64,000 bases of DNA from Dehalococcoidia bacterium (GTDB lineage: Bacteria; Chloroflexota; Dehalococcoidia; Lucifugimonadales; UBA3495), in contig CBDAVT010000001.1 in assembly GCA_965201145.1 (NCBI GenBank), forward strand, positions 106-64,105, given 5' to 3'. Numbering within the stretch: position 1 is the stretch's first letter; every line of letters starts with the position of its first letter. The notes beneath the pieces are model-generated. The model saw nothing but the letters and a program-made list of their open reading frames with translations. It ran no database searches and was not told where the DNA came from. Position numbers and translations under genes: made by a program. This document shows, piece after piece, positions 55,240 through 57,604 of this stretch.

Positions 55240-55467
55240 ATGAACGAAGTAATGACCTGGCCGGAAATAGAAGCCGCCTTTGACTCGGAATGGATTCTGG
55301 TGGACGCCACGGAGTGTACCCGGTCCCACGAAATCATCAAAGGCAGGGTTGTTTTTCATAGTCCGGATCGGAAAGAGGTCTATCGGAAGCTGAAAGAGCT
55401 GCCACGACTGCACCATGCTGTCAGGTATATTGGCAAGCATCCGAAAGACATTGTGTTTGCTCTGTGA
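55240..55467 (+). CDS. Small hypothetical protein (DUF5678-like)
   Basis: 75 aa MNEVMTWPEIEAAFDSEWILV...GRVVFHSPDRKEVY; stop overlaps the next start (GTGA). Confidence 0.65.
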   Translation: MNEVMTWPEIEAAFDSEWILVDATECTRSHEIIKGRVVFHSPDRKEVYRKLKELPRLHHAVRYIGKHPKDIVFAL

Positions 55468-55847
55468 GTGTATTTTTCGACCCGTCCGGGACATTTATAC
55501 CAATCCCAGTCCAATTTTTTCGTTTAGATAAGTACGTCTCGGTCCGGTTGGCGCTGGATACCGGCGCAACCCAAACGCTTATCGGCAAAGATATAGTGGA
55601 GGCGTTGGGATATGATGTCGAGGCGGCCCCCGTGATGAGACAAATTACCACTGCCAGTGGCGTGGAAACCACGCCGGTCGTAAACATTGAACGAGTCAAG
55701 GCATTGGAACAAGAGCGTTTGGATCTGCCAGTTATTTGCTATAACCTGCCATCTGGTATCCCTTTTGACGGCCTGATTGGTTTGGATTTCTTTCGAGGCC
55801 AGCGGCTTGCCATAGACTTTCGTGAAGGACTTATAGCCCTGGACTAG
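55464..55847 (+). CDS. Retropepsin-like (clan AA) aspartic protease
   Basis: LALDTGA catalytic motif, TASG flap, GLIGLDF. Confidence 0.88.
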   Translation: MSVFFDPSGTFIPIPVQFFRLDKYVSVRLALDTGATQTLIGKDIVEALGYDVEAAPVMRQITTASGVETTPVVNIERVKALEQERLDLPVICYNLPSGIPFDGLIGLDFFRGQRLAIDFREGLIALD

Positions 55848-57062: not shown

Positions 57063-57462
57063 ATGGTTAGCCAAGGAGCAATAGCGCCGACGGAACGAGT
57101 GATGGTGTTTATTGACGGCAGTAACTTTTATCATTTATTTAGCTAGAATACCCAACTTCGAACTAAAATTGGGACAACTGGTGTATCCTCCCAATCCGCC
57201 GGGGGCGACTCCTTATGAAAAGGGAGTAGATGTCAGACTCGCTACCGATATGCTGGTTCATGCTGCCCGCAACAACTATGATACTGCTATATTGGTTAGC
57301 GGCGACGCAGATTTTGCCGATATGGTTCAAGCGGTCAAGGACTGGGGCAAAAACGTGAAGATAGTTCTGTTTGGCCGAGACGGGTCCCGGGTACTTAGGG
57401 ACGTAGCGGACAGAATAATTGAAGTGGACCCTTCGTTTCTCGATGACTGCTGGAGACAATGA
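57063..57462 (+). pseudogene. NYN (LabA/DUF88) ribonuclease-domain gene with internal deletion and frameshift
   Basis: One frame reads MVSQGAIAPTERVMVFIDGSNFYHLFS* (57063-57146). A second frame carries EKGVDV and LVSGDADF. The central part of the domain is missing. Confidence 0.82.
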
Positions 57463-57570
57463 TAAGGGTTGCTCAGGCAACCCTTAACTTATCAAAAGCC
57501 CAAGTTTGGCGAGCAAACTTGGGGAGGTAAGAAACCCAGGTTTGGCGAGCAAGCCTGGGGAGGTAAGACA
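57463..57570 (-). ncRNA. Predicted small RNA of two 36-nt hairpin repeats plus a terminal hairpin
   Basis: Repeats start at 57499 and 57535; hairpin at 57463-57486; the upstream minus-strand promoter predicts a start at the repeat edge. Confidence 0.55.
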
Positions 57571-57575
57571 GGAAC

Positions 57576-57604
57576 ATCATACTATACCGGCAGTGCGAGG
57601 TCAA
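57576..57604 (-). promoter_or_regulatory. Sigma70 promoter firing into the repeats, convergent with NYN
   Basis: TTGACC-N17-TATGAT on the minus strand with no plausible ORF downstream. Confidence 0.65.

Follow-up and report, generated by a model that had tools for sequence, protein, structure and literature searches.

A candidate family of tandem-hairpin small RNAs neighbouring NYN ribonuclease genes in Dehalococcoidia and other bacteria

Results

A predicted small-RNA gene facing the remnant of a NYN gene

The locus described here lies in the window, by which we mean the whole 64,000-nt stretch of Dehalococcoidia bacterium DNA that was analysed. Its + strand carries what is left of a gene for a NYN protein (PF01936). 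The N-terminal remnant (57063..57143, +) translates as 27 codons, including the VMVFIDGSNFYH motif, and ends at a TAG codon; in alignments, intact relatives begin with this motif. The C-terminal remnant (57121..57462, +) is read in another frame and comprises 113 residues (57121-57459) followed by the stop codon TGA at 57460-57462. It matches the PF01936 profile at positions 73-144 of 145 (E = 1.1e-17) and is 65% identical to residues 77-189 of an intact relative. Intact relatives cover positions 1-145 of the profile, with the aspartates invariant; no full-length domain can be read in the window, where the IDGSN motif is out of frame with positions 73-144. A preliminary description of the stretch, made from its letters alone, had implied that the gene is broken. 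This is borne out by the two frames and by the absence of approximately 48 residues relative to the intact protein, that is, by an internal deletion combined with a frame change. To judge from these features, the nuclease gene looks dead and the RNA gene alone appears intact. Elsewhere in the window, a 127-residue ORF (55464-55847, +) between the argininosuccinate synthase and aminotransferase genes gives a match to aspartyl protease families of the retropepsin-like type (PF13650, E = 3e-13).

Facing the NYN remnant on the - strand, positions 57455-57604 are predicted to constitute a small-RNA gene endowed with its own sigma-70-type promoter. The promoter (TTGACC-N17-TATGAT, 57576..57604, -) matches at 10 of 12 positions and would initiate transcription near 57569. 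The predicted RNA of about 115 nt (57455..57569, -), whose ends we infer, contains three hairpins with C-rich single-stranded tracts between them and scores 70.9 bits with model R1 and 63.9 bits with model R2 of the family presented below. It folds at -43.5 kcal/mol (z = -5.96), as against -54.1 kcal/mol for the + strand, which wobble pairs favour when the window is taken alone; the count over the whole family favours the - strand.

The hairpin abutting the NYN stop codon, H0 (57463-57486, -), has a perfect 10-bp stem and a 4-nt loop (TAAGGGTTGC-TCAG-GCAACCCTTA) and is the presumptive terminator; the U-run that follows it is weak in the window (UCAUUGUC) and strong in relatives. Repeat unit 1 (57496-57531, -) combines hairpin H1 (57499-57523) with the tract UUUCUUACCUCC on the RNA strand, and repeat unit 2 (57532-57567, -) combines hairpin H2 (57535-57559) with the tract GUCUUACCUCC. 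Each unit has a 10-bp stem and a 5-nt loop. The two repeat at an exact 36-bp period with 89% identity over 36 nt, a match seen in none of 100 shuffles of the window. Three positions differ between their 34-nt cores. Two of these turn an A-T pair into a G-C pair; the third makes a U.G on the + strand and a C.A on the - strand, the RNA strand, leaving one unpaired position in the fold of that unit. The perfect hairpin directly past the stop codon, the two repeats with their exact period, the compensatory A-T to G-C pair and the opposite-strand promoter (57604..57576) had all been pointed out in the preliminary description, and all were found as described.

No second copy of the repeat was detected in the organism's own 3.09-Mb genome by pattern search, BLAST or the covariance model. 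A dispersed or REP-like repeat could therefore be ruled out, the element being present in a single copy in this genome and its copies elsewhere being tied to NYN genes. Genome-wide occurrence independent of NYN, which the preliminary description had named as an observation that would count against it, was not seen. The 13-mer CCAAGTTTGGCGA has four further occurrences in the genome, in coding frames reading TKFGE/D, and these we take as chance. One + strand frame of the element reads KPKFGEQTWGGK twice; a peptide repeat was rejected because what relatives conserve, by compensatory changes, is the hairpins and not the peptide. In metatranscriptomes, the region was recovered from 4 runs of one study, as contigs of 1.9-6 kb with flat depth. 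Three of the four assemblies have a contig end at 57502-57544, inside the tandem repeat; these breaks look like an effect of assembly and not like RNA ends.

Covarying hairpins and conserved single-stranded tracts

Covariance-model searches identified the RNA at 36 loci in all. In its general form a TTGACA-type promoter precedes two units (three in the window), and the last hairpin together with a U-run makes up an intrinsic terminator. A unit joins a single-stranded C-rich tract, about 11 nt long and close to rAUnAnCYCC in consensus, to a hairpin of about 25 nt. The tract is the most conserved primary sequence of the element, above the stems, with the consensus UAAAUGAACUC then C over 52 linkers, and it is single-stranded in the consensus fold. 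A third hairpin is restricted to the window and to loci L004, L005, L016 and L055. Repeat unit 2 is a duplicate of unit 1 that arose in one lineage: most members have a single unit of this type followed by a terminator unit, and the two-copy 36-nt duplication is specific to the lineage of the window's family. In one relative (L028:1863-1947, genome G411) both hairpins are nearly identical (GGGGUUGC-CUC-GCAACCCC), so that the terminator is visibly a second copy of the unit.

The hairpins are maintained by compensatory substitutions. In a first alignment of 14 two-hairpin cores, 14 of 21 consensus pairs showed compensatory changes and 93.8% of the cells were paired, against 77.3% in shuffles (none of 500 as high) and 33-52% in slid controls. 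An alignment of 26 sequences raised the number of such pairs to 18 of 21; paired cells amounted to 95.9% against 73.0% and the covariation score was 0.625 against 0.176 (0 of 500 shuffles as high), values to be read bearing in mind that this alignment was fitted to the covariance model and is biased towards structure. The helix homologous to H0 has compensatory changes at 11 of 11 pairs, and covariation is seen at 7 of 10 pairs in the H1 helix.

Three features agree on the strand that is transcribed. A promoter matching at least 9 of 12 positions lies upstream of the RNA at 14 of 20 related loci, compared to 5 in the other sense and to a mean of 1.4 (maximum 5) in shuffles. A U-run, taken as 5 or more U among the 9 nt past the last hairpin, follows 18 of 26 RNAs on this strand and 2 of 26 on the other. 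Finally, G.U pairs outnumber A.C pairs on the RNA strand by 14 to 3 across the family, the second unit of the window, with C.A on the RNA strand and U.G on the other, being an exception to this bias. For the window this means the strand opposite to NYN, and the same three counts uphold the original suggestion of a promoter-driven RNA facing the gene. Searches of Rfam 15 returned nothing relevant at E <=10 for the window or at E <=1 for 20 related loci. The RNA is a well-supported candidate family absent from Rfam 15.

Three gene orders around one group of NYN genes

The association with NYN genes was examined from both sides. Genomes were scanned with the RNA model in a class set and a phylum set of 151 genomes each, at a threshold of 45 bits. 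Matches reaching it occurred in 9 genomes, in 8 of them beside a NYN gene or a remnant of one. The class set gave strong matches to model R1 in 7 of its 151 genomes, 6 of which lay beside NYN or a remnant; the phylum set added two (genomes G499 and G490), in which the RNA is upstream of NYN on the same strand. At these two loci the order is promoter, tract and hairpin, tract and hairpin with U-run, Shine-Dalgarno sequence and ATG. Among the 5 genomes of G499's class, G499 alone has RNA matches; at its upstream-type locus a tRNA gene (L139:2265-2351) lies about 140 nt past NYN. The ninth genome (G107) is 1.2 Mb in size, is rated 100% complete and has no NYN homologue at E <=1e-5. Its RNA (L074:1501-1591) and promoter are convergent with leuB, and the last few bases of a NYN gene seem to remain.

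From the protein side, 80 further loci were fetched with a profile of 15 RNA-linked NYNs and scanned with the model. Upstream cases came from metagenome-assembled genomes labelled Omnitrophota, Planctomycetia, Armatimonadota and Bacillota and from two unclassified ones; convergent cases came from three members of the phylum Chloroflexota (two labelled Dehalococcoidia, one Chloroflexota) and from one Pirellulales genome, in which the match was weaker (34 bits). A scan of 75 other NYN loci yielded four more upstream cases (Nitrospirales, Acidobacteria, Holophagae and a 'proteobacterium'), and model R2 matched neither of the CPR NYN loci L022 and L023.

By layout, the 36 loci divide into 22 convergent, 12 upstream on the same strand, 1 divergent and 1 without NYN. 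At the convergent loci, which are mostly from Dehalococcoidia and include the window, the terminator abuts the NYN stop codon. At the upstream loci (L139, L140, L144, L145, L147, L150, L151, L178 and L018-L021) merely 10-30 nt separate the terminator from the NYN start, and this interval contains the Shine-Dalgarno sequence. The divergent locus (L148) belongs to a metagenome-assembled genome labelled Proteobacteria. Taken together, these comparisons indicate that, in at least 8 phyla, the RNA family is dedicated to a particular group of NYN (PF01936) genes as their neighbour; that it represents a real RNA gene partnered with NYN we consider very probable.

The RNA-linked partners are soluble nucleases of 175-190 residues, and the catalytic aspartates are invariant in 15 of them. 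Two congeners of the window's organism (G002 and G016) possess an intact NYN gene of 189-191 residues, past which come a terminal hairpin, a pair of units each about 37 nt long and a TTGACA promoter pointing back towards the gene. The preliminary description had proposed looking for just such hairpins and convergent promoter beside intact homologues, and these two loci are examples. The gene upstream of NYN in both differs from that of the window; in a further congener (G014) an acyl-CoA dehydrogenase gene is present with another upstream neighbour. At 5 of the 36 loci (the window, L057, L071, L140 and L074) NYN is broken or missing next to an intact-looking RNA, a count that is biased, since scans starting from the RNA detect loci without NYN and those starting from NYN cannot. 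The damage consists of a gene in two frames at L057, a remnant of 54 residues at L071 and an internal deletion at L140.

NYN relatives without the RNA

NYN homologues are present in 176 of 401 sampled genomes of the class (E <=1e-25). Within the organism's own family, the orthologue is patchily distributed: 8 of 61 genomes gave a match (E <=1e-20, own genome included), and only three or four of the matches are close. When the 34 nearest loci were inspected past the stop codon, 11 had the hairpin element and 19 continued with a radical SAM gene; among more distant NYN loci, 36 of 40 were without the RNA. Since the majority of Dehalococcoidia NYN relatives are devoid of it, the RNA is not an antidote that NYN proteins at large depend on.

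The loci with the radical SAM gene (L025, L026, L030, L031, L033, L035, L036, L039-L045, L047, L049, L050, L052 and L053) lack the RNA element; in all of them the gene directly downstream of NYN, in the same orientation, encodes a B12-binding radical SAM-like protein of about 480 residues. In a tree of 39 NYN proteins these genes form one clade (support 100/99), with the RNA-linked genes outside. In a quick tree of 71 NYN proteins, unrooted and with weak backbone support, the radical SAM clade is nested in a convergent-RNA group of Dehalococcoidia (support 99), a large RNA-less Dehalococcoidia clade adjoins another convergent group, and the upstream-type genes of several phyla group together. 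We read this pattern as suggesting an old NYN-RNA partnership that underwent several losses.

The flanks of the RNA-linked loci consist of housekeeping genes, and no mobile or defence genes were recognized among the 10 of 26 ORFs with a Pfam match. Close relatives were found on neither plasmids nor phages: NYNs of 27-28% identity occur on 6 plasmids, and phages gave none. At one upstream locus (L019:2027-3457), as well as at L020 and L021, the RNA-NYN pair is followed by an overlapping AAA_15 ATPase gene (OLD/AriA-like) whose best PADLOC matches are Old and AriA; the genomes concerned are labelled Acidobacteria, Holophagae and 'proteobacterium'. This combination of RNA, NYN and ATPase looks like a defence system.

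Discussion

Relation to known RNA-protein pairs

The layout seen in the window is reminiscent of type I toxin-antitoxin pairs. In the txpA/RatA and bsrG/SR4 pairs of Bacillus subtilis, convergent antisense RNAs overlapping at their 3' ends control small membrane peptide toxins through long antisense pairing. The window likewise has a convergent small RNA whose 3' end overlaps the 3' end of the partner gene. However, the overlap here is the terminator hairpin alone, the same RNA is also found upstream of the gene, and the partner is a soluble NYN nuclease instead of a hydrophobic peptide. The upstream-type loci evoke the autoregulatory 5' leader hairpins of the Escherichia coli ribonuclease genes rnc, rne and pnp, which act in cis alone: the ribonuclease gene is preceded by a structured RNA that its own product might cleave. 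Unlike those leaders, the RNA described here has its own terminator and occurs also in convergent, divergent and gene-less settings.

Another parallel is the abiF motif, an RNA that is included in Rfam. RCd22 from a Clostridioides difficile prophage is reported to carry two copies of this motif and to bind and neutralise AbiF in cis and in trans (10.1101/2025.04.15.648962). Common to both cases is a conserved RNA motif in tandem, in two copies, by the gene of an RNA-targeting protein, which in the case of AbiF is toxic. The protein there belongs to Abi_2 and here to PF01936, and the RNA here is without a match in Rfam.

The preliminary description had likened the locus to type III toxin-antitoxin systems. 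According to the survey by Blower et al. 2012, the toxIN, cptIN and tenpIN families have units of 31-62 nt in 1.9-5.6 copies, those of ToxI being 36 nt long (PMC3401426). Here too an endoribonuclease gene has as its partner a short non-coding RNA built from some 2-3 units in tandem; the window has two of 36 nt and the terminator unit, and relatives have two of about 36-45 nt. Moreover, at 12 related loci the promoter, repeats, terminator and nuclease gene succeed one another in an order that agrees with the locus criteria of that survey (PMC3401426). On this point, owing to the upstream order in other phyla, the likeness is stronger than the first description could have perceived. It weakens where the protein is concerned: the nuclease is NYN/PIN-like and matches PF01936 alone, so that, judged by its Pfam match, it is not of the ToxN type. 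Further differences are that the units are plain hairpins with single-stranded tracts as opposed to the pseudoknots of ToxI, that the terminator itself is the last unit, and that in the window and at 21 other loci the RNA is convergent and lies downstream of the gene, not upstream. Nothing was found in support of another proposal made initially, that of a guide system. Our searches of the literature retrieved no paper joining type III toxin-antitoxin systems with NYN, and the titles and abstracts of papers on the NYN domain in connection with small RNAs and antitoxins describe no such RNA.

What the RNA might do

The reading that we tentatively favour, while holding it to be less than an even bet, is an inhibitory RNA-protein pairing in which the RNA serves NYN in the manner of a type III antitoxin. 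The link between the two genes is kept in three incompatible gene orders, which suggests that the RNA exerts its effect on the NYN system in trans and is more than a 3' antisense RNA or leader. Most likely the RNA would bind the NYN protein, which may cut it within the single-stranded tracts; binding would hold the nuclease inactive, as type III antitoxins do with their toxins or RCd22 with AbiF. How much RNA is made relative to nuclease mRNA would, at upstream-type loci, be governed by the terminator. It is the combination of the three layouts, the type III features of the upstream loci and the AbiF/RCd22 precedent that leads us to prefer inhibitory pairing. A broken NYN gene next to an intact RNA is the order of decay expected for a toxin and its antidote. 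The invariant catalytic aspartates of the RNA-linked NYNs and the OLD/AriA-like ATPase gene that follows some of the pairs also count in its favour. Several observations speak against this reading. Many NYN relatives lack the RNA, the annotated neighbours of the RNA-linked loci are housekeeping and not mobile or defence genes, and close relatives are missing from plasmids and phages. By its Pfam family the protein is not of the ToxN fold, and its RNA units are plain hairpins where ToxI has pseudoknots. In addition, PADLOC matched the NYN to HEC-09, a NYN-containing candidate which gave no phage defence when tested (10.1101/2024.01.29.577857).

An account that is unlikely, yet deserves serious consideration, is that the RNA is a base-pairing regulator. 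Its C-rich tracts would anneal to the ribosome-binding site on the NYN transcript, possibly also to those on other mRNAs, and so repress their translation, in cis at the leader-type loci and in trans elsewhere. The tracts are indeed single-stranded in the consensus fold, and at upstream-type loci they share a transcript with the Shine-Dalgarno sequence of NYN. The anti-Shine-Dalgarno character initially ascribed to them stands for some members, which read ACCUCC (the window and loci L024, L055 and L178) or CUCC (the upstream-type group), and is lost in many others, where ACCCCCC would pair poorly with GGAGG. Pairing with the NYN start regions inspected leaves the conserved rAUnA portion unexplained, and a crude duplexfold comparison of whole sequences from 15 loci gave practically the same energy for cognate and non-cognate combinations (-54.8 vs -54.6 kcal/mol). 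We give still less credit to the notion that the element works exclusively in cis, as a leader or attenuator at upstream loci and as a bidirectional terminator with an antisense promoter at convergent ones, where it would act through transcriptional interference or 3' overlap, with nothing acting in trans. This would suit the 12 loci in which a promoter-proximal leader and its terminator stand right before the NYN start, and the 22 in which the terminator abuts the stop codon. It is at odds with the occurrence of one RNA family in three mutually exclusive layouts, the divergent locus L148 included, and with the fact that RNA and promoter have survived the deletion of NYN in G107 and its inactivation in the window, L071 and L140.

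The resemblance of the tract to the end of 16S rRNA raises the possibility, in our opinion a very slim one, that the RNA is a decoy or substrate which mimics what NYN naturally acts on, the 3' end of 16S rRNA, and titrates the enzyme or reports on it; hairpin and tract would correspond to helix 45 and the GAUCACCUCC tail that follows it. When the matrix built from the tract, with its consensus UAAAUGAACUC(C) over 52 linkers, was applied to the organism's own 16S tail, UGGAUCACCUC scored 6.9 bits and ranked in the top 0.17% of genome 11-mers, at 1 of 13 offsets; the corresponding probability of a chance match is about 2% once the 13 offsets are corrected for. Two loci point the same way, L024 carrying GAUAACCUCC and L178 carrying GAAUUACCUCC. 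Against this, the likeness is short and is to be expected of any RNA pairing with Shine-Dalgarno sequences, CCCCCC replaces CCUCC in many members, and we know of no experiment that ties bacterial PF01936 proteins to 16S ends. A bolder version, equally speculative and to be regarded as a long shot, would merge this idea with that of an antidote. The NYN-RNA pairs would then be phylum-spanning, RNA-neutralised ribonuclease toxins forming a fourth, non-ToxN branch of type III-like systems with three gene orders; the units would mimic a helix-45-like hairpin with its GAUCACCUCC-like tail, the target of the toxin would be the anti-Shine-Dalgarno end, and the RNA would be the decoy. Lastly, the palindromes might be DNA operators for a dimeric regulator with no RNA structure involved, as the nearly invariant palindromic core of H1 in the Dehalococcoidia set (GGTTGC-N3-5-GCAACC) could be taken to imply. 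This we find hardly credible: covariation is free at the outer stem positions, other clades have different cores (CCAUUCUUGU/ACAAGGAUGG and CCCGCCAU/AUGGCGGG among them), G.U exceeds A.C by 14 to 3 on one strand, and a U-run follows the second palindrome.

Implications

To our knowledge, the PF01936 (NYN/LabA-like) proteins of bacteria, common as they are, have no established role. A covarying, dedicated RNA partner in at least 8 phyla offers a concrete handle on the function of one group of them, and it constitutes a new candidate RNA family, absent from Rfam 15, whichever mechanism holds. The RNA, whose gene lies next to a dead ribonuclease gene in the window, may serve as antidote or regulator of this kind of enzyme, and a toxin-antitoxin relationship is plausible. 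Should the RNA inhibit the nuclease, a PIN-like toxin would join those controlled by RNA antidotes, and RNA antidotes would be freed from the classical order of repeat, terminator and toxin. Searches that demand that order would then miss systems of this kind.
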